Source: a virus
DNA: 64,000 nucleotides
Strand: one strand, 5' to 3'
Virus record (IMG/VR): IMGVR_UViG_3300033571_009591
Location: 20,216 to 84,215 of that record
Below are positions 1,214-28,028 of the stretch, in pieces. Within the stretch, counting starts at the first letter, position 1. Each line of letters begins with the position of its first letter. Position numbers and translations under genes: made by a program. The notes below the pieces were generated by a model that saw only the letters and a list, made by a program, of their open reading frames with translations, did not search any database and was not told the DNA's origin.

Positions 1214-1309
1214 ATGAAAAAAGAACTAAAGGATTGTTTCTGGTGCGGCGAGACTTATGGAGCCGACACAAAGAACTGTCCCAACTGCGCAACAAAGACG
1301 GACAGCTGA
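1214..1309 (+). CDS. small Zn-ribbon protein
   Basis: CxxC...CxxC in 31 aa (CFWC, CPNC). Confidence 0.35.
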   Translation: MKKELKDCFWCGETYGADTKNCPNCATKTDS

Positions 1310-1488
1310 GCTAGCGGCCAGAGTTCCTGAGTTGTTTCTAGTTGAACGGGCATCACAGCTTTCTGCAGTAGATTATTGTTCATAATGTATTACGGTTAGT
1401 ACAACCTTAGAATTAACCCTATACACAACGGCCTGCCTAATGGACGCCTGATTTGCATCAACGGCCTGACGGATGTACTCTGCGATTC

Positions 1489-1627
1489 TTGCTAGATGAC
1501 GGTCAACATAGAGGTTTCTGGGTTAATGATTTTCCCTTGTGATCTATGAAGGACGGTCATCACGGAGTTCTAGGTCGGAACCGCCACTTTCTCTCCTAGT
1601 CGTACCTGCCGTCATCTAGCTCCTTTT
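1489..1627 (+). ncRNA. candidate structured small RNA
   Basis: TTGCAT-17-TACTCT (1453-1481) upstream; 12-bp closing stem GCTAGATGACGG (1491-1502)/CCGTCATCTAGC (1609-1620); inner CATAGA/TCTATG stem; no ORF. Confidence 0.5.
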
Positions 1628-2038
1628 AAAATTAACGGCGTGCCCAGAGCTCAGCGGCCCGCCCACATCCAAACAACTTCTTGAAGCCGACAGCGATCCA
1701 CTGGAGGTGGGACGCCAGGTATCACTTCCAAACAACTTCTTTTAAAACGGTAGCTACCGCAGCTGATTTAGCAAAAAGTAAAAACGGCTTGCAGCTGTAA
1801 GCGGCCCGCCAGGAACCGCGAGTTGTTTGTAGTTTCATATGGCGGCCAGACAAACCTCCGCCTACACCTCCTCCACCTCCACCTGCAACAAAAAATTTAA
1901 CGGCGTGCTAGACTCCGCTTTGCGACTTCAGTCGCAAAGTGAACTACAGACAACTTAACAACTTTGGATAGCGGCCTGGTAGCTGCACGGTTGCAAAAAG
2001 TAAAAGCGGCCTGGTAGAAGCGCCCGATATATAACGGT

Positions 2039-2302
2039 GTGTCTTCGTTGACAGTAAGCCAACGGTGCCTTAAAGTAGTGGGCATGCTAGTGGAGTTGTA
2101 TGTACTCAGCCGTGTAGTCAAAGCCAGGAAAGCGCGACAAGCATTAGCGGATGCTGAAGAGTACGAAGACGATGACGGATATCGCTATCCTGCCTACTTC
2201 CACTGTCGACGGTGTAAGAACCAGATGGACAAGATGCGCATCGAAGAACAACTTCAGGGATGGAAGAGGACTGGTGACGGTGGAGAAGAAATTCTCGATT
2301 GA
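2039..2302 (+). CDS. hypothetical protein, N-terminal hydrophobic segment (true start probably ~2084)
   Basis: ORF track; CxxC near C-terminus. Confidence 0.4.
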   Translation: MSSLTVSQRCLKVVGMLVELYVLSRVVKARKARQALADAEEYEDDDGYRYPAYFHCRRCKNQMDKMRIEEQLQGWKRTGDGGEEILD

Positions 2303-2477
2303 TGCAAGAGGAGTCCCATCGCCGGTCTGCCCCAATTGCGGATGCATGCTCTTAAGAATTACAGTTCAGTTCGAATTAGATAATTATGAAATTTCTGGAT
2401 ACCTATTAGATGACGCTGAGTGTTCGTCATGCGGATGCCTCATTACCGCCCCCACTCCCATCGACCACATTAGTTAG
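2151..2477 (+). CDS. Zn-ribbon protein (true start probably ~2274)
   Basis: CPNCG...CSSCG motifs in C-terminal part. Confidence 0.5.
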   Translation: MLKSTKTMTDIAILPTSTVDGVRTRWTRCASKNNFRDGRGLVTVEKKFSIDARGVPSPVCPNCGCMLLRITVQFELDNYEISGYLLDDAECSSCGCLITAPTPIDHIS

Positions 2478-2544
2478 TTAACTTGACAACACGTCAATGG
2501 TGTACTAGTATGTATACATACCAATAGGACTAGAAGGGGATCAG

Positions 2545-2724
2545 ATGAATTACAAGGGAGTAGAGGTAAAGACTTTTATCTCATGCTACGAATGCCGAGA
2601 AGTTATTAGTAACTCCAAAAATGAAAAGGAAGTTACTTATCCTGACGGTTACCTTTACGCGGTTTGCGTAAAGTGCGCAGACTCTTTAAGTACACATCTG
2701 GATTTGACACTACCAAAAAAATAG
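2545..2724 (+). CDS. small Zn-binding hypothetical protein
   Basis: promoter 2483, GAAGGGGA RBS, CYEC...CVKC. Confidence 0.6.
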   Translation: MNYKGVEVKTFISCYECREVISNSKNEKEVTYPDGYLYAVCVKCADSLSTHLDLTLPKK

Positions 2725-2762
2725 TTATACTTGGAATACACACTCAAGCAAAGGGGATATAA

Positions 2763-2942
2763 ATGAATACAACTACTCAAGTAACAGCATTACCTCAGTG
2801 CGATATCTGCACGGGACAAACTGCTAAGTACGATGCAATGACATCTAGAGGTCCATGGGCCTACATGTGTCAAGAATGTTTTGGGGACTACGGCGTGGGC
2901 CTTGGTCTTGGAAGAGGACAGGAGTTATTACTATGCAAGTAA
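2763..2942 (+). CDS. conserved small phage protein
   Basis: promoter 2704, AAGGGG RBS; CDIC...WAYMCQEC...GVGLGLGRGQ motif. Confidence 0.65.
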   Translation: MNTTTQVTALPQCDICTGQTAKYDAMTSRGPWAYMCQECFGDYGVGLGLGRGQELLLCK

Positions 2943-3181
2943 AAGATTTGATTAACGCACTTACAGAGTACTACAAACCAACTGATGAACTTGTAGTACT
3001 TTTCTACAGCAAAGATGAATTCGCTTTTGATGATGATGAGGAACTGGTCCTCACTGATGAAGGCTGGAACGAGATTGTAAAAGTCATGCACGAAAAGGGT
3101 GGCTTGGATTCTCCCGACCAATACATTACAGATTACATTAGGGACTTAGCAGGCGAGCACGGCGAGGAACGGGGAGAGTAA
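2933..3181 (+). CDS. hypothetical protein, paralog of 12261..12491
   Basis: MQVKDLINAL..Y.PTDELVV resembles MKVRELVSQL..Y.PDDEIIV. Confidence 0.65.
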   Translation: MQVKDLINALTEYYKPTDELVVLFYSKDEFAFDDDEELVLTDEGWNEIVKVMHEKGGLDSPDQYITDYIRDLAGEHGEERGE

Positions 3182-3387
3182 TGAAAGTTAAAATTAGTCT
3201 TGAACAGATCATAGATATAGATGATGCCATGTCTAACGATATAGGGTTTGAAATGTACGGCCCTAAAGATATGAGCACTGAAGATAAAGTGGATTATCTA
3301 ATGGCTCGCTTTGCTGAAGATATAGACACTATGGTTAAGTACGATGAAGTGTTAGGCAACATCTCTATAGAATATATAGAGGATTAA
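3181..3387 (+). CDS. hypothetical acidic protein
   Basis: GGGGAG RBS, TAATG coupling. Confidence 0.6.
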   Translation: MKVKISLEQIIDIDDAMSNDIGFEMYGPKDMSTEDKVDYLMARFAEDIDTMVKYDEVLGNISIEYIED

Positions 3388-3980
3388 ATGTTGACCTGTA
3401 ACTGGTGCGGTGACGAGATGAAGGCAGGCGTGTACGAGATACACAGATGCCTACAAGACGGTGAAGCCGAAACGGCTAGCGCTGAGTAAGTAAAAGATTC
3501 GTACACCAATTCCATTGTGGGTTACTGGTAGACGAAGTACGGCAAGACGGCGTGTCCATAACGGGCACGCTTTTTTGTTGCCCGAAAACTGAAGTCGCCC
3601 TATAACCTGGAACGGGCAAGCGAAGTTGTTTGTAGTTATGCAGTGATCGGATGCATTTAGCAAAAAGTAAAAAACGGCCTGGATACCTGGATGCTGTCGA
3701 ACAACGTTGAGTTGTTTGTAGTTGTGAAACGGATCTTAGCTGGACTGAACGAAACGGCAAGGTTGAGTGGCCTCGACTCAACTTGACTGACGGCATGCCT
3801 TAGTGCTAGTATGTACCCATGAACAAGAAAGACGCACTCAACGGACTCCTTCGCATGAAGGGACGCTTTGTGCTGAACCAAAGTCCGAAGGTCTTTGCGG
3901 ACAAGAGGACAAAGCGAAACCGCACGCGCTCTGACAAGAAGCGCCGTGCCCTAGATGAACAGGAATAGGAAAAAGTAAAA

Positions 3981-4142
3981 ATGTCACACACATACTTTGC
4001 CGTTGACGGGTCTTACGGAAACGGAGTAGACATCCTCGTTGTTGATACTTCGAGTTGGACGGAAGCGGATTGGGACGCGGTTGATGAAGCCAGCGACTCT
4101 GAAAGAATTGAAGTTGCTCGTAACTTGACAATCAAGAAATAA
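3981..4142 (+). CDS. hypothetical protein (53 aa)
   Basis: ATG directly after motif A G-variant (AGGAAAAAGTAAAAATG). Confidence 0.55.
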   Translation: MSHTYFAVDGSYGNGVDILVVDTSSWTEADWDAVDEASDSERIEVARNLTIKK

Positions 4143-4204
4143 AATGAGATACTTGGTTGTTGAACAGTTATTAAACAAAACTAGGGGAATAGGAAAAAGT
4201 AAAA

Positions 4205-4468
4205 ATGGAAAAATACCAAATAATCGAAGAACGCTGGAACGCTGGGTACTACGCTCAACTTGAAGGCGCAACAATCCTAAAGTTTTTAGGAACTGAACCT
4301 GAGTTTGCGAGTCGAGGATTTCCAAGATTTTCCGCAAAACTAAAAAATGGTGAAGTAGTCGAACTTGTTTTATCTCAAGATGAAGAAGGTAATGGTGGGG
4401 GATTTATGTTCGGTCTTCCTGACTACACACTTCCCGAGTTTCGTACTGACTTGACAGAATCAAAATAA
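4205..4468 (+). CDS. hypothetical protein
   Basis: promoter 4125, RBS; SQDEEGNGGG motif. Confidence 0.65.
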   Translation: MEKYQIIEERWNAGYYAQLEGATILKFLGTEPEFASRGFPRFSAKLKNGEVVELVLSQDEEGNGGGFMFGLPDYTLPEFRTDLTESK

Positions 4469-4509
4469 AATGCGATAATTCGCTAACAACAACAAAAGGG
4501 GGAAAACAA

Positions 4510-4698
4510 ATGGTAGTAATTGGATATAACGTTAAGTTCTTAAATTGGATGTCATTACACAACAGTTACAATTTTGTAAGTCTTGAAGTCGCAACAGAGT
4601 TCTGTAAGAAATACGAGCGATTCGGCTATACATCAGAGATCAACACAATTTGGGCGCAAGAATCTGTAAGCCCTTCAGTCGAAATTTCGGTGGCATAA
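4510..4698 (+). CDS. hypothetical protein
   Basis: promoter 4451, AAGGGGG RBS. Confidence 0.6.
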   Translation: MVVIGYNVKFLNWMSLHNSYNFVSLEVATEFCKKYERFGYTSEINTIWAQESVSPSVEISVA

Positions 4699-4952
4699 TG
4701 ACTACAAAAGCAAAGTGCTTGGCATTAGCCGAACAACACGGCATTGAGATTGAAGTAAGCAAAAACTATGATTATGAGTATAGCCTCTCAGTACCGAAGG
4801 GTTATCAACTCGAGGATTTTGATGGTGCCAGAAGTGGACTTTCAATGTGCGACATACCATCAGCCAAAGAACTCTGGAAAGATATTTACTCTGACTTAAA
4901 CACAATGATTAACTATAAGCCTTGGCATAAAGTTTCACAAGGTTGGGAGTAA
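4698..4952 (+). CDS. hypothetical protein
   Basis: TAATG coupling, internal start MTTKAK of ORF 4650..4952. Confidence 0.6.
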   Translation: MTTKAKCLALAEQHGIEIEVSKNYDYEYSLSVPKGYQLEDFDGARSGLSMCDIPSAKELWKDIYSDLNTMINYKPWHKVSQGWE

Positions 4953-5320
4953 TCATCATGATTACAACAATAATCGCAGGAACTTTTCTTGGGGATTGGC
5001 AACCAGCCTCGGAAGATTGGTTTGCTAGTGCTGAACAAGGAACAGAGGACGCTAGTTGGATTGACCTAATCAACAAACTCTATGATGCTCCACAAATAAA
5101 AAGTGGAAAAGGATTTAGAGTAAAAGTTGAACTTACTGAAAACGAGGCTGAACTTCTCAAAGGAGAGGCAAAGTATCGTATGGAGTATTGGTCTTTGATG
5201 TATCAAGATTGTAAAGCAGATATAGATAGGAACGCCCACACCTGCGCCAAAAAACTTTACCTAAGTTTAGGTGGGGTTGTTACAGAAAAAATGTCTAGAC
5301 AAATGGGCATTAAAGTTTGA
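4943..5320 (+). CDS. hypothetical protein (start probably 4958)
   Basis: ORF track, GGGAG RBS. Confidence 0.6.
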   Translation: MGVIIMITTIIAGTFLGDWQPASEDWFASAEQGTEDASWIDLINKLYDAPQIKSGKGFRVKVELTENEAELLKGEAKYRMEYWSLMYQDCKADIDRNAHTCAKKLYLSLGGVVTEKMSRQMGIKV

Positions 5321-5515
5321 TTTGACAGAAACAAAATAAAGTTTTATACTTGGAGCTAACAAACTAAAAAGGGGAAATAAATGATTACAGTTACAAGCCA
5401 TCAGTTAAAGATCTGTATCGAAGCCTTGAAAATGGCAGAGGCTACAGAAAAAAATGACTCGAAGTTTGGGTCAGTTCTTGACGACCTACTACTCAAGACA
5501 GGAGAGTGATAACAA

Positions 5516-6184
5516 ATGCCAAACTGGGTTTTTAACGACCTTCACATTGAGGGAAGCAAAGAGGCTATACAAAAAGTAAAAGCGCAACTCAATGCGCCAT
5601 ACACTAGGAACACCACAGAGGGAGAAGAAGTTATTTACAGTAATCCTGTAATCTCTTTCTTAAACATAGTTCGACCACCCGAAGACAAGATGGACGAATA
5701 CGAAGGCGTACATGGTTACAAAGATGGCGAGAAGCAAGGGCAAGGCGAGTTCAACTGGTACAACTTTAATAATCGCGAGTGGGGAACAAAGTGGGATGTC
5801 GCAGTTCATGATGGCGAGAAGCACTCAGACACTCAACTCAACCAAGAAGAAGAAACCAAACTTCACTACTACTTCCAAACTGCGTGGTCACCACCACTTC
5901 CAGTAATCGAAGCCCTCTCACTTCAGCACCCTGAACTAGAAATAACTTTGAGGTATGAAGAAGAGCAGGGCTGGGGTGGAGAAATCTACTGGGATAAAAC
6001 TGGCTCGACTATTGTCGAAGAGTGGGACATACCTGACTCTCACGCAGATTATGTTAAGAAAGATGATGTTGATGGCTGTGTCTGCTCTAGAGAAGAAGAT
6101 ACAGATGAGTGGTATGACGATTGCCCCGGCAAAAAAACTATCATTGAACTTCACGCCAAGCGTGATGTGGTTCAACTCAAATAA
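5516..6184 (+). CDS. DUF1281/YubB ferredoxin-like family protein
   Basis: MPNW..N.L.I.G, WY.FN..EWGTKWD, F.TAWSPP signature motifs. Confidence 0.8.
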   Translation: MPNWVFNDLHIEGSKEAIQKVKAQLNAPYTRNTTEGEEVIYSNPVISFLNIVRPPEDKMDEYEGVHGYKDGEKQGQGEFNWYNFNNREWGTKWDVAVHDGEKHSDTQLNQEEETKLHYYFQTAWSPPLPVIEALSLQHPELEITLRYEEEQGWGGEIYWDKTGSTIVEEWDIPDSHADYVKKDDVDGCVCSREEDTDEWYDDCPGKKTIIELHAKRDVVQLK

Positions 6185-6273
6185 AAATCCTTAGCAAAAA
6201 GTAAAAATAAATGGATTTGACAATCCATAAAAAACCTTTATACTTGAACCAACACCTAAGAAAGGGGAAGCAA

Positions 6274-6501
6274 ATGGAAATGAAATCAAAATCGTTTCTT
6301 GTTACTGTTTATTATCGAGGTAGTGATTTAGTCGCTGACACTAATCAAAGTGATTATGACTACGACCTCTCTACTAGCAAAGTAATTCGTGACCACCTAG
6401 AGGAGATTAACGAGGACACTAGCATTGTTGATGTTGCCATTGACACTAACTATCCTCGTATTCTAGAAGTTATGGACAGACAGATAAACGACCCTCTATA
6501 A
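6274..6501 (+). CDS. hypothetical protein
   Basis: promoter 6217, AAAGGGG RBS before ATG 6274. Confidence 0.6.
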   Translation: MEMKSKSFLVTVYYRGSDLVADTNQSDYDYDLSTSKVIRDHLEEINEDTSIVDVAIDTNYPRILEVMDRQINDPL

Positions 6502-6565
6502 AAGGATTTGACAATCTGTAAAAAAGTGCTAGACTCAGATCAACACCTACAGAAAGGGGAACAAA

Positions 6566-6931
6566 ATGGGAGACAGAGCAGTAGTTGGATTTAAGGCAAA
6601 TGCTGAAAGTCCAGTTATTTATCTTTATTCACATTGGGCAGGTTCAGACATGGACTTCCTATTAGCACAGGCACTAGAAAAGGCAGAGCCTCGTTGGAGT
6701 GACTCAGACTATGCGACTCGTATAGTTATTTCACACTTGATTTCAGATGATTGGAAATCACTAACAGGCTGGGGTATCTCAGTAAATACTTTCGCTTACC
6801 CTGACTATCAGACAATTAAGGTAGTCGAGTGGAGTGAGGGGATTGTTTCTGAACGCCTCACAGATAGCCCTGACACAGTAATTCATACAGACACCTTCGC
6901 AGATTTCGTATCAGCGAAACAGAAAGTCTAA
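6566..6931 (+). CDS. conserved phage early protein
   Basis: MGDRA...IYLYSHWAG motif; promoter 6508. Confidence 0.7.
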   Translation: MGDRAVVGFKANAESPVIYLYSHWAGSDMDFLLAQALEKAEPRWSDSDYATRIVISHLISDDWKSLTGWGISVNTFAYPDYQTIKVVEWSEGIVSERLTDSPDTVIHTDTFADFVSAKQKV

Positions 6932-7035
6932 GACACGCACGATTGAGTGGGCTAGATGGATTTGACACTAGCCACTCTATCGTGTTAAACTCAGCCCAGC
7001 AAGAACCCAAGACACAATGACAAGGAGAACACCCA

Positions 7036-7497
7036 ATGTTAGACAAAGAAAAGAAAGTTCAAGGCATAGCAGTTTATGCTGAGTTTCGTCGAGCAGGTCA
7101 AACAATGCAGTTAATTGTTACACCTGACGCATACACAACAGAAGGCAATTTAGTTCCAATGACTTTAATTCGCCGAATTGTTACCAAAGAAACACCTAAG
7201 AAACAATGGAAGAATTCAACTCTTCGTGGACTAGACCTTAATGAAATTATTTCAGAAAAAAGAACTGTATCTGACTCAGACAAAAATGAGTTCACAGAGA
7301 AGCGCATGCGACATGCTATTCATTTCTTTGATCAAATTATTAGTCAAGGTTGGACTATCGAGCAGAAACCAATTCTCGTTGAGGTATCACGCCACGACGC
7401 AGATGATTTAATTAAAGGCAAGACACCAAACAAAATAATCTATCGCGTTCACATTTCTCGTAAAGCCTTAGGCTTTCCTGAATTAGTGGCTGCGTAA
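7036..7497 (+). CDS. hypothetical protein, first gene of AAA/VWA operon
   Basis: promoter 6962, AAGGAG RBS. Confidence 0.7.
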   Translation: MLDKEKKVQGIAVYAEFRRAGQTMQLIVTPDAYTTEGNLVPMTLIRRIVTKETPKKQWKNSTLRGLDLNEIISEKRTVSDSDKNEFTEKRMRHAIHFFDQIISQGWTIEQKPILVEVSRHDADDLIKGKTPNKIIYRVHISRKALGFPELVAA

Positions 7498-7511
7498 GGG
7501 GGGATATAAAA

Positions 7512-8567
7512 ATGGAAAATCTTAAAGAGCGTTTCGACGCACTCACACCAAATCTAACACCAACACTATGGGATACCATTGTGGATGTTGCCTCACAAGG
7601 AGTCAATGAAAACGCAGGGCTAATCCTTAATGGAAGTGTTCTTCCACAAGGTCGTTATGTTGAACGCGCACTTGGCGCAGACAGAGCCCCACGCAAATCT
7701 AAGATGGCTATGGCAGGTGGCATTGTGGAAAATCTCGAAGGCGAAGAGCAATACCTTCGACCAAATGGCACACCATACTTCTCTCGTTTATGGGGAGAGC
7801 ATAGAGATGTAGAAACTTTGCGCAAAGCAAGAAGCGCAACTGCGATTTCTAATTCAACAGGTAAAGGCTCTGCTATGTATCCTTTACTTTATGGCGCACC
7901 CGGTTGCGGAAAAACTGCCCTTATTGAAGCAGCGTATGGAACTAATGTTCGTACTTTGCTAGGTAATGGAGATGTTGAAGCAGCAGACATGATTGGTTCT
8001 TATGTTCAAACTCCAAGTGGAAACTTTGAGTGGGTAGATGGTGACCTAGTGAAGGCTGCGGAAAATGGCGAAGTTTATTTCATTGACGAAATTGGTTTGA
8101 TTGACCCTAAGGTTCTCGCACTCGTGTATGGACTTATGGATGGTCGTCGTGAATTAACTATCACTACAAATCCTGAGCGAGGAACTATCAAGGCTCATCC
8201 TGATTTCTTCGTAGTAGCAGCGACAAATCCAAACGCACCCGGCGTTCGTTTATCTGAGGCGTTGCTATCTCGTTTCACACTTCAAGCAGAAATGACAACA
8301 GATTGGAATCTCGCTCGCAAATTAGGAGTACCAACAATTGTTGTAACTGCTGCTCAGAATCTTTATCGTAAGCAGATGAACAAGGAAGGCATTTCTTGGT
8401 CACCACAAATGCGCGAACTTCTAGCGTTTCGTGACATAGCAGAAACCTTTGGAACTGCGTTCGCACTTTCAAATCTAATCGCTGCTGCTCCACAGAACGA
8501 CAGAGCAAGTGTGGCTGATGTTCTTTCCCGTGCCTTTGGGGAAGAGATGAAGCCAGCCAAAATCTAA
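7512..8567 (+). CDS. MoxR/CbbQ/CobS-like AAA+ ATPase
   Basis: Walker A GAPGCGKT, Walker B YFIDE, ATNP sensor, LLSRF arginine finger. Confidence 0.9.
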   Translation: MENLKERFDALTPNLTPTLWDTIVDVASQGVNENAGLILNGSVLPQGRYVERALGADRAPRKSKMAMAGGIVENLEGEEQYLRPNGTPYFSRLWGEHRDVETLRKARSATAISNSTGKGSAMYPLLYGAPGCGKTALIEAAYGTNVRTLLGNGDVEAADMIGSYVQTPSGNFEWVDGDLVKAAENGEVYFIDEIGLIDPKVLALVYGLMDGRRELTITTNPERGTIKAHPDFFVVAATNPNAPGVRLSEALLSRFTLQAEMTTDWNLARKLGVPTIVVTAAQNLYRKQMNKEGISWSPQMRELLAFRDIAETFGTAFALSNLIAAAPQNDRASVADVLSRAFGEEMKPAKI

Positions 8568-8738
8568 GGACACCCCCGTCCTAGATTGAGGTGAGGGGTC
8601 GAGGGTTGAGCGTGGTTCTTGGGTGTCCTACGCTCCCCTCGACACTTCCAAAATGGATTTGACAATAGAAAATTAAAATGAAATAATTGCTTTATTAGGT
8701 CGGAAGCCTAGTAACTAAAAAGAAAAGGGGTAAGAAAA

Positions 8739-10517: not shown

Positions 10518-10655
10518 TTCGGTTTGGGTGGTCGGTAGATTGCTCAAAGACTTTCAGTTCGGGTGCGTCCTTCCAACGCTTTCCCACCAGAACCGAACGG
10601 AGAGTAAAGTGGGCAGAGTCCCTTAACCCCCTTTCGGGACTCTGCTCACACTTTA
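10518..10655 (+). ncRNA. structured 3' element / candidate sRNA with anti-SD loop
   Basis: TTCGGTT..GGTGG/CCACC..AACCGAA stem, then GCAGAGTCCC-TTAACCCCCTTTC-GGGACTCTGC hairpin. Confidence 0.45.
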
Positions 10656-10700
10656 ACAAAAAGTAAAAACGACAAATGACGAAATGACAAGGGGAAAGAA

Positions 10701-11132: not shown

Positions 11133-11173
11133 TTTTGGTAAACTAACGGCAACAGAAAGAAAGGGGAAAACAA

Positions 11174-17150: not shown

Positions 17151-17151
17151 T

Positions 17152-18083: not shown

Positions 18084-18203
18084 GTAGTAGGGTGCTTGAC
18101 TTTCTATAAGAAGTTTGATAAAATACAAACAAGCCTCGCATGAAAATGCGGGGCTTTGTTTTTTCCCTAATCACTAGTATGAAATGACGATACGATTTTA
18201 TAC

Positions 18204-18449: not shown

Positions 18450-18479
18450 CAAAAAGTAAAAACTAAGGGTGGGGGTGAA

Positions 18480-19049: not shown

Positions 19050-19169
19050 ATTTTTACTTTTTGCTGTTTAGCTCTGCAGCCGGCGTTCACTGGAAGCCAA
19101 CTACAAACAACTTCGTGATGTCTGCTACAAGGACTTGACATGTCACCTTCGTTAATATATACTTATGCT

Positions 19170-19257
19170 ATTCAGTAAGGGGGAAGTCGCTGGTCACCTG
19201 AACGACCTGAAACCTAGGGGGTCGGAAACAATACGACTCCCTTACTGAATCTTTTTT
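19170..19257 (+). ncRNA. candidate promoter-driven small RNA
   Basis: TTGACA-17-TATACT (19135-19163); predicted +1 at the start of 12-bp stem ATTCAGTAAGGG/CCCTTACTGAAT; T-run follows; no ORF. Confidence 0.6.
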
Positions 19258-19324
19258 GACATTACGAAATTGATGTACTAGAGTAACTAACACAAGGACA
19301 CAAAGACAAAGGGAGAAAAGATAT

Positions 19325-20209: not shown

Positions 20210-20520
20210 CCTAACCCCTTAGGAAAAAGTAAAAATAGATGCCCCCTCCCCCGAGGGGGTTTTCTATTGTTGCGGTGCTTGACTTTCTACAAAAAAGTGC
20301 TAAACTTAGATCAACAAAACGAAAGGGGAAAGTAAATGGAACTAGAAGTAGAATTGGCTCAATGTACGCGGTGTGAGGATGAAGTTGATGCGAGCACACT
20401 AATGGCTTATGGCGATTGGGAATTGTGTGAGATATGCCAGGACGACATTTAATATCAAGTATTGACTTTCTAAAAAATTATTTTTATACTTACGCTACTT
20501 AATAAGAAAAGGGGAACACA

Positions 20521-20985
20521 ATGAAAGATACACACGAGATTGTAAAGTGTAAGAATTGCTTAAAAGATACCGAATACTCTTCATATGAAGTCTACGAAGC
20601 AATATGCTTAAAGTGCCAGAAGCAAGTGGTGGTATTAGAAAGCGATTGCGTGTGCGCAGATGAAGATGGTCCAGACTATGGTGAGTGCTTCGGTTGCTAT
20701 GATGATGCTAAAGATAATCTTAAGTATCTAATCAACGCTTGGGTAGATGCTCAAGGTAAAGAATTTTCTGAAGTCCGTATAGATGGAACGGGAATGGGAT
20801 GGCAACGCCAGAGTGGTTATGCCCATACGGACATAGATGATATTGCTCATGCCCTCGCACTTCGCGGTGACTTCCGTATTATCTTTACTTTAGAAAATGG
20901 CGAACTAACTGCGACTCGATCATCTCATGATGAACCTACGGGAGCGCACTTCACCTTCACGCCAAGCGACACGCCAAGCGAGTAA
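20521..20985 (+). CDS. Cys-rich hypothetical protein
   Basis: promoter 20462; MGWQRQSG and SHDEPTG motifs. Confidence 0.7.
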   Translation: MKDTHEIVKCKNCLKDTEYSSYEVYEAICLKCQKQVVVLESDCVCADEDGPDYGECFGCYDDAKDNLKYLINAWVDAQGKEFSEVRIDGTGMGWQRQSGYAHTDIDDIAHALALRGDFRIIFTLENGELTATRSSHDEPTGAHFTFTPSDTPSE

Positions 20986-21340
20986 GGTTGCGTATATTGA
21001 TTGACTATGTTATGCTTACTCCATAACAATAACGAAGGGGGAATAAAATGATCTGCTCAAGTTGCTCGATAAGAGGTATCCGTGTTTGCTACCATATCGC
21101 GGTAAGTAAAGATGAACTTTACACGGAATATCTCGAAGATTAAATAGTAATTAAAAGCCCCCACCAAGTGTGGGGGTTTTTCTTTGCCGCGATGCATTTA
21201 GCAAAAAGTAAAAATTCAACAGCTGCGGTTGTCAGCTGCGCAACTGCAAACAACTTCGCCACTTCCGCTTACTACCTACTAATACTTGACTTTCTATAAA
21301 AAAGTAGTAGACTTAGGTTAACAAAACGAAAGGGGAAAAA

Positions 21341-21766
21341 ATGTTAATTTCACCAAAGCAACTCGCGTTCGCGGGACGCCTTGCCAACGAACGCGGAGTC
21401 GCGCTCGCTACTGATTTTTCTACTTGGTCAATGAACCAAGCAAGCGAGGAAATTGCTCGCCTACTCGCAATGCCAAAGGTTGGCGTACGCGTACTTCCTG
21501 AAGGTATCTACTTCAAGGATGGGATTGTCTACAAGGTTCAAGTGTCTGGTGCTGGACGCTCATACGCAAAGGTCTTGCGTGAAAAGGGTGGGTTCGAGTA
21601 CGACAATACTGCCATCAAGAATCTTTCCATCGAGGATAAGATTACGATTGAGCAGGCTAAGGCATATGGCGTTCAGTATGGCGTCTGCGTTGTCTGCGGA
21701 GCGTTGCTTACGGACGCAAAGAGTGTGGCAGCAGGGATTGGGCCGGTGTGCGGTAAGCGCATCTAA
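21341..21766 (+). CDS. DUF6011-like Zn-finger protein
   Basis: CVVCGALLTDAKSVAAGIGPVC; promoter 21286; terminator 21779. Confidence 0.75.
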   Translation: MLISPKQLAFAGRLANERGVALATDFSTWSMNQASEEIARLLAMPKVGVRVLPEGIYFKDGIVYKVQVSGAGRSYAKVLREKGGFEYDNTAIKNLSIEDKITIEQAKAYGVQYGVCVVCGALLTDAKSVAAGIGPVCGKRI

Positions 21767-22211
21767 GTATTAAAAGTTAAGCCCCTCGCATACGCGGGGG
21801 GTTTTTCTTTGCTCACTACAAACAACTTCGTTCAGATCTAGCTGCGTGCGGTATGTTTTTACTTTTTGCTAAATATCTCTGCATTTTTGAGATGCGTCTG
21901 AGAGAACTACAAACAACTTCATTACAATAAACGGTAGTACCTCTCGTCCAAAATGCGGTTTGCTTACTAAAATAGTAAGTAGAACCTAGAGAAAGGGAGA
22001 GAGATGAGCAGAGATAAGAGCGAGGTAGAGTGCGCTGGGTGTAGTCAGGTAATGCTGAGTCAGAAAAAGACTATTGACACTTCGTGGCATTATGACAAGA
22101 GGACAGGCGACCTATGGCACTTGGAGTGCTGGGAAGCCTTCAGGGCTTGGTTTGACTTTCCTGACCTTTAATGATAGACTCGCGCTAACTAAATAGAAAG
22201 GGGGGTTAGTC

Positions 22212-22724
22212 ATGGAAAACCTAGACAACCTCGCAGTAATAGATGAGAGCGTGGAAGCACCGCGCTACGAGATTGAGTATCCACAAGAGTTGTGGTCTGA
22301 AGTCTTAGAAGGATTGTGGATTGGTGGAACAGATGACAATGACATCTACGACCAATTAGAGAAGCCAATGATTAGGCGAGAGCATTTCGATACGGTCTTT
22401 ACGGCGTATGCGTGGGCTAATCCTGTGGATTGGTTTGTCAAAGAAATTCGTTATGGTTTTTGGGATAGCCATGTTCAAGGTGAAGCAGGGTTTAATCCTG
22501 CGGAGTTAGATGACATAGCCTCAATGGCGTATGCGGATTGGAAAAAGGGTAAGAAGGTTTTATTCCGTTGCCAAGCAGGGCTTAATCGTTCGAGCCTATG
22601 TGCCGCTTTGGTGTTAATGAAAGACGGCTATACGGCAGATGACGCTATCGCCCTTATTCGTGAGAAGCGAAGTAAGTACGCACTATTTAATAAGACTTTC
22701 GTAGATTACCTGAGAAGCCTGTAA
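22212..22724 (+). CDS. dual-specificity/tyrosine protein phosphatase
   Basis: CX5R loop CQAGLNRS; GLWIGG; AIALIREKR. Confidence 0.85.
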   Translation: MENLDNLAVIDESVEAPRYEIEYPQELWSEVLEGLWIGGTDDNDIYDQLEKPMIRREHFDTVFTAYAWANPVDWFVKEIRYGFWDSHVQGEAGFNPAELDDIASMAYADWKKGKKVLFRCQAGLNRSSLCAALVLMKDGYTADDAIALIREKRSKYALFNKTFVDYLRSL

Positions 22725-22821
22725 GCGACACGCCGAAGGTCAGGAAGGTTTGACTTATGTCAGGAAGGTCTGTATTATTAAGGTATTAACAAAAGTTGTT
22801 AATAAGAAAAGGGGTAGAAAA

Positions 22822-22977
22822 ATGAAAACAGAAGCGAAGTTCATCAGACGCCGTATCGCAGTTGCCGTTATATTTTTCGCTATGTTCGGTTGGGCGTTAG
22901 ACGCTACAACACCTGAAATGTGTAAAGTACCTGTGGAGCAGATGAACCAATACTGTATAGATTTAATCTACCCATAA
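22822..22977 (+). CDS. small membrane protein
   Basis: RRRIAVAVIFF TM; promoter 22750. Confidence 0.6.
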   Translation: MKTEAKFIRRRIAVAVIFFAMFGWALDATTPEMCKVPVEQMNQYCIDLIYP

Positions 22978-23133
22978 TCGAAAGGGGAATAAAAATGAAA
23001 TGTTTAACTTGCGGAACTACTGAAGGCATAGTGTATTCAGGCGTAGATGCTTTCTGCCTCGGAGTAGAAACAGAAAAGATTTGCTACTCGTGCGCTAATG
23101 CGGTTGCCTCACAAAAGAGGTTGGAGTCAGCCA

Positions 23134-23367
23134 ATGAAGGTAACTAAAAAAGGAAAGGCTTTCCTCAAAGAGAGAGAAAGAACTAGCCCACTTCGTGCGG
23201 AGTTTTTACTTAAGTTTGCCTTCATGAGTGACGAACAGTTTTGGAAGTGGTCTGAACTAAAGACAACTGCCGAAGCAAGAGCGTTTATGGAAGCAATACC
23301 AATGCCTCCAATGAGGACAAACAAAATGTTTATCGAACTAGAAAAACAGGAAGGTAGCAAAAAGTAA
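23134..23367 (+). CDS. hypothetical protein
   Basis: stop inside motif A (GSKK*). Confidence 0.55.
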   Translation: MKVTKKGKAFLKERERTSPLRAEFLLKFAFMSDEQFWKWSELKTTAEARAFMEAIPMPPMRTNKMFIELEKQEGSKK

Positions 23368-23518
23368 AAATGACACTAGACACGGGAACTTTAGTCGCAA
23401 TAATGATCGCACTTGCAGGCTCATGTACGGTGATGATTATTTCTATTCGCAGAATTGGCGATCTAGAAAGACAGAACAGATTTCTACGCAACCAACTAAA
23501 AACGAAAGCAGGTAAGTA

Positions 23519-23707
23519 ATGGATGACACAACTCAGGTAGTACTACCCGACAACTGCGGGTTTTCATGTCAGTTCGAGTGGATTGAGGTTTCCTCAAACT
23601 TCTTTAATGTTTCTGTCTATACGCCTGCGCTTATCGCTGGCTTGGCTGGGTATTTGATTTACCGAGTTATTAAGAAGAGCAAGAAGAGTCCATTTGAGAA
23701 AAAGTAA
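23519..23707 (+). CDS. small membrane protein
   Basis: TM segment then basic tail. Confidence 0.55.
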   Translation: MDDTTQVVLPDNCGFSCQFEWIEVSSNFFNVSVYTPALIAGLAGYLIYRVIKKSKKSPFEKK

Positions 23708-23888
23708 AAACATAGAGGCAGACGCTTCTAAACTCTATGACTCAGGATTGTCCATAGACAATGTTGCTTTGGAGTTAGATGTTTGCTACCGAACAGCAAG
23801 AAGGGCTATTAAGAACGCTGGCGTCACACTTCGTGACCCCTCTGCCCGCCTGAAAGGGCGTACAAGCCCTAAGAGAAAGAAGGGTTAA
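23694..23888 (+). CDS. small HTH protein
   Basis: LYDSGLSIDNVALELDVCYRTARRAIKNAGVTLR. Confidence 0.7.
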   Translation: MRKSKNIEADASKLYDSGLSIDNVALELDVCYRTARRAIKNAGVTLRDPSARLKGRTSPKRKKG

Positions 23889-24184
23889 ATGAACAACCTT
23901 AGTATAGTTTGGACAGCCGTGGTAGCCGTTGTAGCAGGTCTAGCGTCAATTCTAGCCTCTATCGCTGGTAACGACTCGTTGTCTATAAGTTTCGGTCTGT
24001 GTGCGGTTGCTTCGTCAATGCTCGCAAGCCGAGAACGCTAAGCCGTTCCTTAGCACCGAAAGACTCACTAACAACCTTCCCCGTTGGTGAGTCTTTCTTT
24101 TGGTGTGTCACTTGCTTTAATTTTTTAATACTGTTAGTATTTGCCTTATCAGGGGAACAGCCCCTAAATATCGAAAGGTAAAAA

Positions 24185-24394
24185 ATGACCACTTACAAGC
24201 GCGTTGCGATTACAGAAAATGCTAAAGGTTTCTCATTTGACCTAGTTACAGAAAACTGGTTACGCCCAAATTCATATTCAAAAAATGCTCAAACAATGCT
24301 TACACTTGACCAAATTAAGTCAGTCATTACTTACTACTGTAACTACAGAAATGTGGAAGTCATCAATGGCATTATGTATCTTGGAAAGGTGTAA
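24185..24394 (+). CDS. hypothetical protein
   Basis: promoter 24112, RBS. Confidence 0.6.
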   Translation: MTTYKRVAITENAKGFSFDLVTENWLRPNSYSKNAQTMLTLDQIKSVITYYCNYRNVEVINGIMYLGKV

Positions 24395-24694
24395 AAATGA
24401 CAAAAGGTACAAATCCGACAAAAGTTCAAATCATTTACATAAATTGCTGGAAGTGCGGGATTTCAATGTCCTTGCCTGAAAAAGATTACTATCACGGCGC
24501 AAGTTGCGGGAAGTGCTGACAAAAAGGCTACTTTCCTGACCTCTCTGTGCTAAAGTATTACCTATGAATGACGAAAGACGACTTGAAAGGTAAGTAATAC
24601 CTCCTCCCCAATGAGGGTGGCTGAGTTGGCTAGTACAGCAACCAACTGCGGTTAGTTGAACGCAGAGTCCATGTCCCCAAACAAAGGAATACCA

Positions 24695-25291
24695 ATGAAT
24701 ACAGTTCCTAATAAAACTGTCGAACAAATAATCAGCGTAGCCATTGCGGTTGTGTTGGTTTCTTGTTTCTCGAGTTATGTTCAAACTTCGAGCGCAGATG
24801 TAGTAACAAATAAAGTAACGAAGGCTCAACTGGCTGAAGAGATTGCTGTACATGAACAAAAGATTAAAGAACTTCAACTCAAGAGGTTTGCAGAACAACG
24901 AACACCATTTACAGATGAAGAACTAGCCCAGATGCTTTACGCAGTTGGCTTCGAGGGCAAGGCTCTCCGAGTTGCTTGGGCAGTTGTAAAGAAAGAGTCC
25001 AACGGACGACCACTAGCCTTTAATGGCAACACCCGTACTGGCGATAGTTCATACGGTATCTTCCAAATCAACATGATTGGTGGATTAGGCGTAGACCGCC
25101 GAGAAAAGTATGACTTAAAAACAAATAGAGAATTATTCGACCCTGTTGTTAATGCTGAGATTGCGCTTCACATGACGAACGAAGGTGAGAACTGGAGTTC
25201 TTGGAAAGTTGGAAGCGGGTATAATGGTAGAGATCAAGCCCGTTTCTTAGACTGGTACAAGAAATTTCCAGAAGGAGTAAACCTCTCATGA
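24695..25291 (+). CDS. lytic transglycosylase / lysozyme-like (SLT) protein with N-terminal anchor
   Basis: AVVKKESNG catalytic Glu, SYGIFQIN, LFDPVVN, WSSW. Confidence 0.85.
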   Translation: MNTVPNKTVEQIISVAIAVVLVSCFSSYVQTSSADVVTNKVTKAQLAEEIAVHEQKIKELQLKRFAEQRTPFTDEELAQMLYAVGFEGKALRVAWAVVKKESNGRPLAFNGNTRTGDSSYGIFQINMIGGLGVDRREKYDLKTNRELFDPVVNAEIALHMTNEGENWSSWKVGSGYNGRDQARFLDWYKKFPEGVNLS

Positions 25292-25794
25292 CTGAAGAAG
25301 TAAACCCAATTCAAGGTCAAGTAGTTCCGACACCCGCCGAGTGGGTTGCTGAGCCACGCCATGAAGAACCTGTGGTTCCCGTTGAGGAACCTAAGGTTGA
25401 AGAAGTAGTTGTTGTTGTTGAACCAACACCAGAAGTTGTTGTTGAACCAACGCCGCCAGCTGCCAAAGAGCCAGTAGCAAAAAGTAAAAATGAAGAGCCT
25501 GTTGCAGCGGCAGCTCCAGCTCATGGCTTAGATGAAAAAGTTGTTCATACATCAGCCTTGGTTTTCAAGTCTAATTCTCACAATTCTGTATCAGTTGGTT
25601 TGGTACAAGAACGCTTAGTTGAGATGGGATTTGTCGATGCCAGTTCAGACAAGTACGGATGGCTATGCGAAGGAACAATGAAAGCCCTCGCTGAGTTTGC
25701 TAACATAAGTGTGGAAGAAGTTAATCTCAAGGACGCTTCAGTCATTGAAGCGTTGTTTGCGGGTACACAAGTTAAGGTCATTGACTGTAAGTAA
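25288..25794 (+). CDS. Pro/Glu-rich protein with peptidoglycan-binding-like domain
   Basis: VGLVQERLVEMGF...DKYG...TMKALAEF. Confidence 0.6.
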   Translation: MTEEVNPIQGQVVPTPAEWVAEPRHEEPVVPVEEPKVEEVVVVVEPTPEVVVEPTPPAAKEPVAKSKNEEPVAAAAPAHGLDEKVVHTSALVFKSNSHNSVSVGLVQERLVEMGFVDASSDKYGWLCEGTMKALAEFANISVEEVNLKDASVIEALFAGTQVKVIDCK

Positions 25795-25892
25795 TTCATA
25801 ATCAGCGTCCAGTCCCTCGTCTAAAATTGAGGGGCTGGGCGCTTTTTACTTTTTGCTAAGCGCTTTCGTGTGGAACATGGAAGGACGACACA

Positions 25893-26183
25893 ATGGCAAA
25901 GAAAACAATAACGGAAGATGAGCGTGAGAATGCTTTCCTAGAGAAGGCAAAGATGCTTATTGGTCGTGTAGTCGCGGTGTTCGCTGCGTCTGGATTGTCT
26001 GTAGTTGGTGCGGGTTCTCTCTTTGGTATCGAAGTGTGGAAGTCTATTGCGCTCGCTGGAGGTTTGGGTGTCGCTACTGTTGTAGAGGCTTTGTCCCGCG
26101 CCTATCTAGCGGACGGGAAACTTACTACCTCCGAGATTAACGATGCGTTTCGCTTAGTTGATAAGAAGAAGGCTGACGACTAA
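25893..26183 (+). CDS. holin-like membrane protein
   Basis: two TM segments, DGKLT..EIN C-terminus. Confidence 0.55.
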   Translation: MAKKTITEDERENAFLEKAKMLIGRVVAVFAASGLSVVGAGSLFGIEVWKSIALAGGLGVATVVEALSRAYLADGKLTTSEINDAFRLVDKKKADD

Positions 26184-26194
26184 TACGGATTGTC

Positions 26195-26234
26195 AAAAAA
26201 GAAACCCCCTAGTTTTCACTAGGGGGTTTTCTTT
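26195..26234. terminator. bidirectional terminator between convergent early arms
   Basis: A-run AAACCCCCTAGT-TTTC-ACTAGGGGGTTT T-run. Confidence 0.85.
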
Positions 26235-26241
26235 AATTAGT

Positions 26242-26865
26242 TTAGGAAGTTGCCCTGCGGTTAGAGGCTTTGATTTGCGTATAGACACTAGAGCCACCAT
26301 TTGAAGTCTTATACCCATACCGAACAAGTCTGAAGACAAGTCCCGAAGTGGTAACTCCAAGTAACTTACCGAGTCTGTACATAGAAACCCCATGTACTGT
26401 GTGCGCTTCGTTGAGCAAGTAGGAATACTCTTCGGCTTCAGCGCGGTAGCGCGGTGAGTTTGAGCGAACCTTCTCTGCTATTGGCTTGAGTTCTTTGAGC
26501 CTTGCTAGTAGTTCAGCGGGAGGCAAGGCATGAATAGTCAATGAAGACTTAGGCTCATGCTTTGGAACCTCTGGAATTACTAGAGTTGGAGGTACAGGCT
26601 CTGCGGTGTGCTTGCCTATAATAATTCTTACCATCTCATTTGATAGCCCTGCCGATTTAGCAATGCTGACATGTGTCCACCCTGCGTGTACTAGCGCAAT
26701 GATGTAATCATTTCGCAAGTTTTTTAAGTTGCTTTTAGCCAATGCGGTGAAGTTGTTTGTAACCTCTTCAGGTAGTTGAACATTAGCAACCTTGTTCATG
26801 CCTGCGCGTTTGTAGTAGTTTTTACTTTTTGCTAACTGTGTTTCTTCGATTGTCGTTGTTGTCAT
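26242..26865 (-). CDS. tandem-HTH DNA-binding protein (paralog of 28227..28727)
   Basis: ALVHAGWTHVSIAKSAGLSNEMVR and HGVSMYRLGKLLGVTTSGL helix-turn-helix patterns. Confidence 0.75.
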   Translation of the reverse strand: MTTTTIEETQLAKSKNYYKRAGMNKVANVQLPEEVTNNFTALAKSNLKNLRNDYIIALVHAGWTHVSIAKSAGLSNEMVRIIIGKHTAEPVPPTLVIPEVPKHEPKSSLTIHALPPAELLARLKELKPIAEKVRSNSPRYRAEAEEYSYLLNEAHTVHGVSMYRLGKLLGVTTSGLVFRLVRYGYKTSNGGSSVYTQIKASNRRATS

Positions 26866-26886
26866 TTGTTATCTGTCCTTTGTCTT

Positions 26887-27219
26887 TTATAGTCCGAATA
26901 GTTTTCGTAGTTTGTTTGCGGTGGCTTCGTCAAGTCCAAGGGTTGAACCTTCTTCATCTACTCCACCCGTGAAGATTACATTTCCTTTAATTGAGTCTGT
27001 CTTTCCGAAAAACTCTTCCCATAAGTCTGTTGCTAGTGAGTTGAATGGTAAGCCGATTAGTTTGCCTTCTTCGTTACACCACATGGTAAGCGTTGGGTTT
27101 AGGTCTACGGCTTCTATCCATCCACCTACTGCTTCTTGAAGTTGCTTTAGTTGTGAACCCTGCTCTGCTAGGTCTACCTCCACCGCGACTCCATCTGTAT
27201 TTAACTTAATTGCTAACAT
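26887..27219 (-). CDS. DUF3846 family protein
   Basis: LQEAVGGWIE...NEEGKL.GLPFN..AT...I.GNV. Confidence 0.85.
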   Translation of the reverse strand: MLAIKLNTDGVAVEVDLAEQGSQLKQLQEAVGGWIEAVDLNPTLTMWCNEEGKLIGLPFNSLATDLWEEFFGKTDSIKGNVIFTGGVDEEGSTLGLDEATANKLRKLFGL

Positions 27220-27335
27220 TTGTCTGCCCCTCTTTCTTTGTTGTTATGCCGTAAGTTTAGTACTAGTGTTTTCATTTGTCAAACTATCTTACATAAGAAA
27301 ACCCCCGCATTTCTGCGGGGGCTTGTCTGTGAGTT

Positions 27336-27503
27336 TTAGTTAGTTGCCCAGAAGTCTTCTACTGCGAAGTTCTCGACCTTACTCACCTTGCGGTTTCGCT
27401 TGTTCATCTTGCGGTCTTGCTTGATTGTGTCAATTACGAAAGGTGAAGCGATTAGTAGGACACCTGTGAAGTAAGCGATAAATACTGCTGTATCTGATGA
27501 CAT
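27336..27503 (-). CDS. small membrane protein
   Basis: minus-strand promoter 27570, AGGGGA RBS, terminator 27298-27325. Confidence 0.6.
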   Translation of the reverse strand: MSSDTAVFIAYFTGVLLIASPFVIDTIKQDRKMNKRNRKVSKVENFAVEDFWATN

Positions 27504-27595
27504 TTTATTTCCCCTGTTCTGTAAGCACCCCTTGTGCTTATGAGATAAGTTTATCAAACTGTAGGCTAGTGTCAAGTATTATCAAGCGTTTTCTT

Positions 27596-27611
27596 TGTGA
27601 TGTCTGTCACA
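27596..27611. promoter_or_regulatory. CRP/GlxR-type site
   Basis: perfect TGTGA-TGTCTG-TCACA centred about -62 of the leftward promoter. Confidence 0.6.
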
Positions 27612-27640
27612 CAGATTGCTAGGCGATTACTAGATATCTG

Positions 27641-28028
27641 ACCAATCACGACCAGTTACGACCAGTCATCTAGTAGAAGTTGTCTGTAGTTCATAGACCT
27701 ACTACCTATCAGCCAAGACCTATGTTACTCATTAGTAACCTACTCACTAGTAACTTACTCATCTTTTAGGTTAGTTCTTATATTAGTTTTTAGGTTACTC
27801 CCCAGTAACTTACTTATTTTTTATGTCACTATTTAATAACTTGCCCCCTACTAAATTACCCACTAATAAATTATCTATTAGTAGTCATTTACTTGCCTAC
27901 CCCCACCCACCAGTAGGCTACTCACTAGTAGATATTATTTCTCATAAGTTACTAATGAGTATTTTTTATATATTTTTTAAAATTCAATTTTTATCTTTTT
28001 TAGAAAAATTTAAAGTATTTAAATCTTA
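27641..28028. repeat. AT-rich array of TTACT-N4-AGTAA palindromes (ori/terminus-like)
   Basis: 27724, 27740, 27794, 27856, 27903, 27918, 27948; three 10-bp ACCARTYAY repeats at 27641-27670; A/T tract 27961-28028. Confidence 0.7.

Follow-up and report, generated by a model that had tools for sequence, protein, structure and literature searches.

Results

A phage early region upstream of the portal gene

We analysed a stretch of 64,000 nucleotides (the window, bases 20216-84215) of the 84,215-bp virus contig IMGVR_UViG_3300033571_009591, in which a block of small early genes at 3771-27360 has lost most of its short palindromic sequences; coordinates are window positions unless stated otherwise. 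The block is preceded by a homologue of gene 1 of cultured actinophages and by a cluster of repeats in which two motifs, A and B, recur, and it is followed by the gene for the portal protein at 29731-31494 (Table 1). The few palindromes that persist within the block are concentrated beside copies of motif A, and the block itself probably forms most of a long terminal repeat. The portal shares 74% identity with its counterpart in Actinomycetia phage DSL-LC01 and 58-62% with portals of ~190-kb Microbacterium phages; its matches are actinophages only, and the sequencing runs that contain the stretch are lake or freshwater metagenomes. Both point to an uncultured lake actinophage. Open reading frames (ORFs) run off both ends of the contig, CheckV puts its completeness at 58%, the phage has a G+C content of 43% and a tRNA scan found none. 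Numerous related IMG/VR contigs were recovered by portal.

Table 1. Features of the window; left-arm genes are given in contig coordinates, and depths are means per Logan contig.
Feature	Position	Strand	Remarks
Gene-1 homologue	126..1034	+	Marks probable left end of repeat just upstream; first motif A at 111-126
Repeat cluster	1035..3770		Few long ORFs; A and B motifs, CGGCCYG repeats, inverted B pairs
Purged early-gene block	3771..27360	+	~51 small genes, nearly all on + strand; many sigma-70-like promoters
Six surviving block GGCC	8866, 14556, 14933, 15474, 18623, 21741 (span 8866..21746)		Each overlaps CCGG
B-A'-B module	15583..15686		AGCT 15655 (GCAGCTG) and three TGCA; right half including AGCT conserved in G004
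A'-linker-B module	19051..19114		AGCT 19070, CTGCAG, GCCGGC; 91% identity over aligned stretch, linker invariant
A-linker-B module	21199..21257		CAGCTG-N7-CAGCTG (AGCT 21221, 21234); between terminator and promoter; one mismatch against G004
B-A'-B module	21818..21920		AGCT 21840 (AGCTGC), AGATCT; AGCT common to G004
Coding sequence (CDS) with internal motif A	25288..25794	+	Motif A (25475-25490) in Ala/Pro-rich linker; AGCT 25458, 25512, 25518
Depth break	27345..27374		Probable right boundary of repeat; Logan contig depth
Depth, run X1 (exact-match contigs)	up to 27374; from 27345		103.6, 95.5, 88.8, 95.6 up to 27374; 61.4, 56.3, 50.7 from 27345
Depth, run X4			Block 14.2-20.3; right of break 9.4, 9.1
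Depth, run X10			Block 18.5-25.6; right of break 11.7-12.6
Depth, run X2			Block 8.6-16.4; right of break 7-8
Left-arm genes (L197; contig 1-20000)	3504-4694, 6323-6973, 8555-9196, 10580-11368	-, -, +, -	

Palindromes are purged from the early-gene block

The window contains 121 copies of AGCT. Against a maximal-order Markov background, 9 were observed at 4000-28200 where 82.2 were expected, and 100 at 28201-64000 where 202 were expected. Within the block, 9 copies stand against 111 expected from a first-order Markov model, the expectation ranging over ~83-111 between backgrounds; at z = -11.0, AGCT is the most under-represented of the 256 tetramers, and outside the block it occurs at about half of expectation. 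A preliminary description of this DNA had claimed that AGCT is purged from the early island, and exact counting bears this out: the nine positions it listed were correct within 1 base (5354, 15655, 19070, 21221, 21234, 21840, 25458, 25512 and 25518), and the ten sites it placed at 1.3-3.8 kb were all recovered. Its remark that AGCT is common after 28.2 kb holds in that the 100 sites there begin at 28445, but they still amount to half of expectation. Eight of the nine block copies lie within 30 bp of motif A, defined as TAGCAAAAAGTAAAAA with up to 2 mismatches, against 0.6 expected from its 22 copies in the block (binomial p 5.6e-9). The nine copies form about six independent clusters, so this p value is too small, though the effect holds. 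Both the depletion and the clustering reported in that description are thereby confirmed.

AGCT is a purged word, as had been claimed, but it is only one component of a class-wide loss of palindromes that the preliminary description had missed. Under the first-order model, ACGT occurs once in the block (81 expected), GGCC 6 times (45), TGCA 25 times (102) and GATC 19 times (62); a second set of counts over the same interval gave 1 against 53 for ACGT, 7 against 43 for GGCC and 26 against 103 for TGCA. The same is seen for CCWGG (1 observed, 26 expected), GGWCC (1, 19.5) and GCSGC (6, 21.5). Palindromic hexamers number 94 against 335 expected, a ratio of 0.28 that rises to 0.32 when those with purged tetramer cores are left out; 27 of the 64 are absent altogether, and TTTAAA, at 0 of 14.4 expected in the block, stands at 48 of 36.5 elsewhere. 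By comparison, non-palindromic hexamers have a ratio of 1.01 in the block, 1000 matched sets of non-palindromic hexamers gave ratios of 0.77-1.28, and the ratio for palindromic hexamers is 0.74-0.97 in the rest of the contig and 0.96-1.2 across gene 1 and the repeat cluster (the first 3.7 kb). Of the six tetramers with the strongest depletion in the block, five are palindromic. The depletion is thus specific to palindromes and not an effect of composition. Because the depleted words are palindromic while matched non-palindromes stay at a ratio of 1.0, restriction avoidance is well supported as the cause. A single specificity of the RGCY (CviJI) type was rejected, as AGCC is over-represented in the block (89 against 53.7).

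The purge has sharp edges. On the left, the last site lies at 3769 and the next at 4529, and on the right the last lies at 25518 and the next at 28102. Purging shows no gradient across the block, forming instead a plateau, and we therefore rejected a gradient set by transcription-driven entry. The left edge falls just ahead of the first sigma-70-like promoter (3783-3812). This first promoter-like site of the block reads TTGACT-18-TAGTAT, and an ATG 7 bases on opens a 49-codon basic ORF (3783-3968), the messenger RNA of which would apparently be leaderless.

The repeat cluster to the left of this edge is unpurged, ACGT and CCGG excepted: observed and expected counts are 10 and 12.6 for AGCT, 12 and 6.6 for GGCC, 14 and 12.7 for TGCA, and 2 and 10.3 for ACGT. 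A third repeated word of the cluster, CGGCCYG (1316-3676), is the source of most of the GGCC there; together with its complement it occurs 9 times over 126-3770 against 0.6 expected. The linkers between motifs had been described as rich in GGCC and CCWGG, which is true only of this cluster, as none of the seven GGCC in the purged block is near motif A.

Surviving sites lie in conserved A/B modules

In the DNA up to 30 bp from motif A, which totals 1364 bp, AGCT, TGCA and GATC occur at unpurged density (7 observed against 5.4 expected, 8 against 5.5 and 4 against 3.2, respectively), whereas ACGT (0 against 3.9) and GGCC (0 against 3.2) are absent. In the remaining 22.7 kb of the block the corresponding figures are 1 against 107 for AGCT, 16 against 97 for TGCA, 15 against 63 for GATC, 1 against 79 for ACGT and 7 against 42 for GGCC. 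Ten of the 26 surviving TGCA are near motif A, where 1.9 would be expected, and surviving hexamers show weak enrichment there (12 against 6.8, p 0.04). The unpurged palindromes CATG, CTAG, TCGA, GTAC, AATT and TTAA do not cluster at motif A.

Five of the six non-coding AGCT in the block lie in four A/B modules situated between a terminator and the next promoter. A general tolerance of sites in intergenic DNA was rejected as the reason, since non-coding AGCT is itself depleted (6 observed, 22.2 expected), as are ACGT (0, 15.8) and GGCC (0, 12.8). Across the three block modules that were aligned, motif A, the linker and motif B hardly vary, and 16 of 17 AGCT in the modules and at 1-3800 are common to ~92% identical relatives, against 28 of 56 in late genes. 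Taken together, the near-invariance and the shared AGCT indicate functional constraint on the A-linker-B modules, as read from the alignments. The three AGCT in the CDS at 25288-25794 behave differently: those at 25458 and 25518 are found in the window phage only, another at 25469 in G004 only, and in relatives free of AGCT the orthologous spot holds TGCA instead. Such turnover looks more like local tolerance than constraint.

Among the nine surviving AGCT, six occur as GCAGCT or AGCTGC, against 20 of 131 copies outside the repeat (p 0.0014). The earlier proposal that YAGCTG is a third binding site, taken here as a third functional element, is the best fit to this bias and to the near-invariant modules, but the element has no fixed register to motif A; an alignment of 26 copies with 45-bp flanks was conserved only in the 16-mer, so a third motif in fixed register was rejected. 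We also rejected module hairpins as the reason for the palindromes, with z scores of -0.69 to +1.07 for six of seven folded stretches; the exception, 1720-1840 (z -2.7), holds an inverted pair of B motifs. The target context of Mu Mom, S-A-S-N-Y, was uninformative, as it is matched on at least one strand by all nine survivors but also by 78 of 100 late sites. Motif A is T-rich in its reverse complement, which, after a hairpin, scores as the tail of an intrinsic terminator (21219-21239 on the - strand, 25804-25852 on the + strand); in one module, the hairpin formed by CAGCTG-N7-CAGCTG followed by a reversed motif A makes up the minus-strand terminator prediction.

Motif A itself does not depend on these sites: upstream of the portal, relatives that lack AGCT altogether still have 6-9 motif-A cores per 3.9-8.5 kb. 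The idea that the modules present restriction-modification sites as decoys or methylation sensors found no supporting result.

A probable terminal repeat spans gene 1 and the block

The ORF at 126-1034 matches gp1 of the cultured phage Pumpernickel (NC_073468; gp1 at 62-985) with 35% identity (E 7e-48); it matched no Pfam family. Gene-1 matches were found in ten cultured Microbacterium or Arthrobacter records, Pumpernickel and nine others, at 35-38% identity. In every one of them the match begins 62-281 bp into the record and is present in two places, the far-end copy having been checked by sequence in Pumpernickel and taken from the two-place matches in the other nine. Pumpernickel carries a 19,963-bp repeat at 100% identity that comprises genes 1-52, all small, forward and upstream of terminase and portal.

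Logan contigs aligned over 14001-34000 reveal a break in depth near the right edge of the block (Table 1). In four runs of four studies, depth is ~1.5-2 fold (up to 2.2) higher to the left of the break, each contig contributing a single mean depth, which is not a copy number. The step in depth, the synteny of gene 1 and the architecture of the Pumpernickel repeat lead us to infer that window positions ~50 to 27360 probably form a direct terminal repeat of ~27 kb that was collapsed to one copy in the assembly. Such a repeat, which the preliminary description had missed, would offer a possible explanation for the regional nature of the purge. We dropped the ends of IMG/VR contigs 1-3 kb upstream of the portal as evidence for a boundary, because short contigs must end near the query gene.

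Just outside the proposed boundary, upstream of portal-proximal genes, lies an AT-rich non-coding array (27500-28100) with TACTCACTAGTAACTTACT-like direct repeats, which could be a packaging or replication site. In addition, contigs of run X1 leave the reference at the motif-A copies at 18469, 21873 and 23353 and continue into the flanks of the copies at 12646, 11704 (inverted) and 111, with a shared stretch of ~20 nt. These divergences may represent strains or molecules that recombined at motif A.

The purge recurs in relatives

The pattern is also seen in three diverged IMG/VR relatives. G001 (125 kb, portal ~75% identical) has no AGCT, GATC or TCGA anywhere in its genome, and its purge of ACGT, GGCC and TGCA is confined to a 21.6-kb block coincident with its 26 motif-A cores; palindromic hexamers in that block number 28 against 295 expected, and a GGCC-rich cluster lies at its left edge. 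In G003, only three ACGT or GGCC occur in 27 kb (20203-47090). The purge ends sharply at common architectural landmarks in G000, G001 and G003. Among 80 portal loci, 36 had a usable upstream flank and were taken, and 31 with at least 3 kb upstream were tabulated; in most of these 31, depletion of ACGT and GGCC is stronger upstream than downstream of the portal. L009 and L011, close relatives of the window phage and of each other (portals 98% identical), are not independent.

The clustering of survivors recurs as well. Among 17 loci carrying motif A, 7 of 12 AGCT in L074 and 2 of 4 in L051 lie near the motif, and across relatives the same is true of TGCA and GATC, though not of ACGT and GGCC. 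The association of surviving sites with the A/B modules noticed at the outset is therefore real.

Block and late genes are equally diverged from G004/L092 (92.1% and 91.5% identity, respectively). This equality argues for joint inheritance, with no recent import, and suggests that the contrast between block and late genes is maintained in place. In the late region, ~92% identical relatives share 50% of AGCT sites (28/56) and 52% of GATC sites, against 70-78% for other palindromes, a turnover that suggests weak ongoing selection against AGCT and GATC in late genes (28201-64000). The palindrome purge was not found in the metagenome-assembled relative DSL-LC01, nor in the terminal repeat of Pumpernickel.

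CCGG and the context of surviving GGCC

CCGG is distributed in the opposite way to the purged words: 11 of its 14 copies in the contig lie in the block (6126-21743), and the 57 kb beyond the proposed repeat contain only one. All six surviving GGCC of the block occur as GGCCGG or CCGGCC, against none of 78 elsewhere in the contig, and the same context is seen in three of five survivors in G004 and one of two in G003. The simplest reading would be cross-protection by CCGG methylation, on the premise that MspI-type methylation blocks HaeIII at GGCCGG. GCWGC is likewise unpurged in the block (28 observed, 26.5-38.8 expected). Surviving TGCA show no such context bias (5/25 against 39/265).

No C5 methylase gene was found in G000, G001, G003 or G004. 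The left arm of the contig (L197; Table 1) encodes a PF01555 DNA methylase, a GmrSD_C/HNH-like protein, a Mom-family protein (E 9e-43) and a class I methyltransferase; the first three are thus encoded outside the block. The nearest matches of the PF01555 enzyme are adenine methylases of the CcrM/DpnA type. A PHROGs search with 10 proteins returned only families of unknown function or weak matches.

Discussion

The explanation that we favour, and consider probable though well short of certain, is that restriction avoidance is focused on the early genes of a long terminal repeat, which are the first to be exposed in the cell, and that the surviving sites are held by the function of the modules, perhaps with overlapping methylation. 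A repeat present at both genome ends would bring the block into the cell first, whichever end leads. Host RNA polymerase would then read the block before any phage counter-defence exists, so that a cut there would be fatal, and early products would largely protect whatever DNA is exposed afterwards. Selection would accordingly strip almost all palindromes from the block, with no more than mild depletion elsewhere in the genome. The AGCT, TGCA and GATC that remain lie mainly in conserved A-linker-B modules between transcription units, where function would outweigh the cost of a site, and some survivors, such as those in GCAGCT and GGCCGG, might be covered by overlapping methylation. The unpurged cluster at 1035-3770 could, by analogy, be a counterpart of the T5 injection-stop region; in that case the purged 23.6 kb would be the first DNA exposed, provided that the repeat enters right end first.

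Several observations weigh against this explanation. The first 3.7 kb of the proposed repeat are unpurged, ACGT excepted, and the distribution of CCGG is the reverse of what the purge would suggest and is not predicted by a simple first-entry model. Depth ratios are 1.5-2.2 instead of exactly 2, run X1 may be the source sample, and the left boundary of the repeat is placed by synteny. Pumpernickel and DSL-LC01 lack the purge; a repeat by itself is therefore insufficient, and host enzymes must matter. No known anti-restriction family and no T5 A1/A2-like or dmp family was found among the 38 of ~51 block proteins scanned with Pfam, where the presence of A1/A2 models was unchecked. Functional constraint also leaves the fast-changing AGCT in the CDS at 25288-25794 unaccounted for.

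Other explanations address either the survivors or the block as a whole. The preliminary description had proposed that adjacent restriction sites are shielded by a protein occupying motifs A and B; read as steric shielding, this would relax selection on sites within ~30 bp. The unpurged density of AGCT, TGCA and GATC beside motif A, the recurrence of clustering in L074 and L051, and the gain and loss of AGCT around the motif A of the CDS at 25288-25794 between 92% identical relatives, with TGCA at the same spot where AGCT is lacking, are what relaxed selection would produce, and the last of these keeps the idea alive in weakened form. But a general steric shield should spare all five words, and the absence of ACGT and GGCC beside motif A therefore contradicts it; across relatives, none of 19 surviving ACGT is near the motif. 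Moreover, the intergenic module sites are conserved rather than drifting, 13 of the 22 motif-A copies in the block, mostly those without a B partner, have neither AGCT nor TGCA in their 45-bp flanks, and the protein would need to be bound already when the DNA enters, yet no such protein is known here. We consider shielding quite unlikely. That the survivors are instead protected by overlapping methylation, with a GCWGC- or CAGCTG-type methylase acting on AGCT and a CCGG methylase on GGCC so that restriction enzymes no longer see the sites, would account for the contexts of surviving GGCC and AGCT and for the persistence of GCWGC where CCWGG, GGWCC and GCSGC are purged, and the phage does encode a DNA methylase and a Mom-family protein. 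Nevertheless, no C5 methylase was found in the four contigs searched, the PF01555 methylase resembles adenine enzymes, TGCA has no context bias, and HaeIII has to be presumed blocked at GGCCGG; context also leaves open why four of the six GCAGCT-type sites fall in modules, which make up a small part of the block. As a full account of the survivors, methylation seems unlikely, if conceivable. Another reading, which we hold to be decidedly improbable, would have motif A mark restriction-immune zones of ~30 bp, in which a delivered protein or a tethered adenine modifier (the Mom-family or PF01555 protein) protects AGCT, TGCA and GATC and not the adenine-free GGCC, so that the phage keeps regulatory palindromes in the repeat that enters first; CCGG and GGCCGG would then reflect a second, repeat-specific layer of methylation.

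The block might also owe its composition to descent rather than to position, having come from a different gene pool shared by phages of many hosts. Gene content is less stable there than in the late genes (the block aligns patchily to G001 and G003), CCGG behaves oppositely inside and outside it, and the Logan contigs that join flanks of different motif-A copies suggest, by eye, a shuffling of cassettes. Such a mosaic origin is very unlikely given the equal divergence of block and late genes, the ends of the purge at common landmarks in three genomes, and the fact that the block follows purges that extend over whole lineages: that of G001 lacks AGCT, GATC and TCGA, and that of the window phage keeps TCGA as the rest of its genome does. 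A further idea, published for the A1 protein of T5 as Davison's hypothesis in passages of 10.1101/866236, is self-avoidance, in which an early phage nuclease cuts host DNA at short palindromes and the phage DNA then present must lack the sites. A GmrSD_C/HNH-like protein is encoded here, though outside the block; dozens of unrelated palindromes are purged, far beyond the recognition of one enzyme, and no nuclease family was found among the scanned block proteins, which makes self-avoidance extremely unlikely. Restriction avoidance at the DNA that enters first thus remains the reading that we prefer.

If this reading is correct, this uncultured family of lake actinophages bears an unusually clear footprint of a rule, so far demonstrated experimentally in T5-like and T7-like coliphages, by which the first DNA to enter is the only part that must be free of restriction sites. 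Palindrome density in metagenome contigs could then reveal the boundaries of early regions and terminal repeats, a broad and novel counter-defence that protects later DNA would be expected among the genes of the block, and surviving palindromes could serve to map DNA that is functionally constrained or chemically protected. In a literature search that left most subscription journals and supplements outside its reach, we found no paper describing a terminal repeat from which palindromes are purged as a class, the purge being limited to that repeat, and no published model that predicts the mirror-image distribution of CCGG.

Among cultured phages, the ~190-kb Microbacterium and Arthrobacter phages share with the window phage a homologous portal (58-62%), gene 1 (35-38%) and an arrangement of ~52 small forward repeat genes upstream of terminase and portal, and differ in that the 20-kb repeat of Pumpernickel carries no palindrome purge. 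Avoidance of restriction sites and palindromes in phages has reportedly been described by Sharp in 1986, by Rocha et al. in 2001 and by Rusinov et al. in 2018. As in that classical pattern, palindromic tetramers and hexamers are under-represented here against Markov expectations and non-palindromes are not; the classical pattern concerns whole genomes, whereas here the strongest layer is one sharp-edged block lying over a weaker genome-wide layer (AGCT, GATC and CATG).

Restriction that depends on the first DNA injected is known from two groups of phages. In the Autographiviridae (Murciavirus, and T7 with Ocr), only motifs in the first-injected region decide sensitivity, as described for Murciavirus and Type I systems (PMC12455610). 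Those motifs are of Type I, the leading regions are short and the phages are podoviruses with transcription-driven entry, whereas in the window phage Type II-like palindromes are purged over 23.6 kb in a plateau without gradient. For T5, passages of 10.1101/866236 state that EcoRI sites and targets of CRISPR (clustered regularly interspaced short palindromic repeats) are hit only in the first-step-transfer region within the terminal repeat, and that the signal which halts injection sits within a large untranslated region crowded with repeats and palindromes; BF23 and other Tequintaviruses are likewise described, in PMC10644984, as resisting Type I and II systems unless active sites are placed in the first-step-transfer region. 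The window phage would resemble T5 and BF23 in having a long direct terminal repeat that carries the earliest genes and contains a repeat-rich untranslated stretch. It differs in its actinobacterial host and unrelated family, its portal matching actinophages only, in the length of the proposed repeat (~27 kb here, ~10 kb in T5-like phages), and in the lack of A1, A2 and dmp homologues within the limits of the Pfam scan given above. Two-step injection is a feature of T5, and the window phage is known from its sequence alone; its purge extends to palindromes as a class, where T5-like phages lack a few tested sites, and its CCGG shows the reverse pattern. With these differences, the first-step-transfer region of T5 is the closest known case, and by analogy the block of the window phage would fit its rule as an evolutionary footprint.

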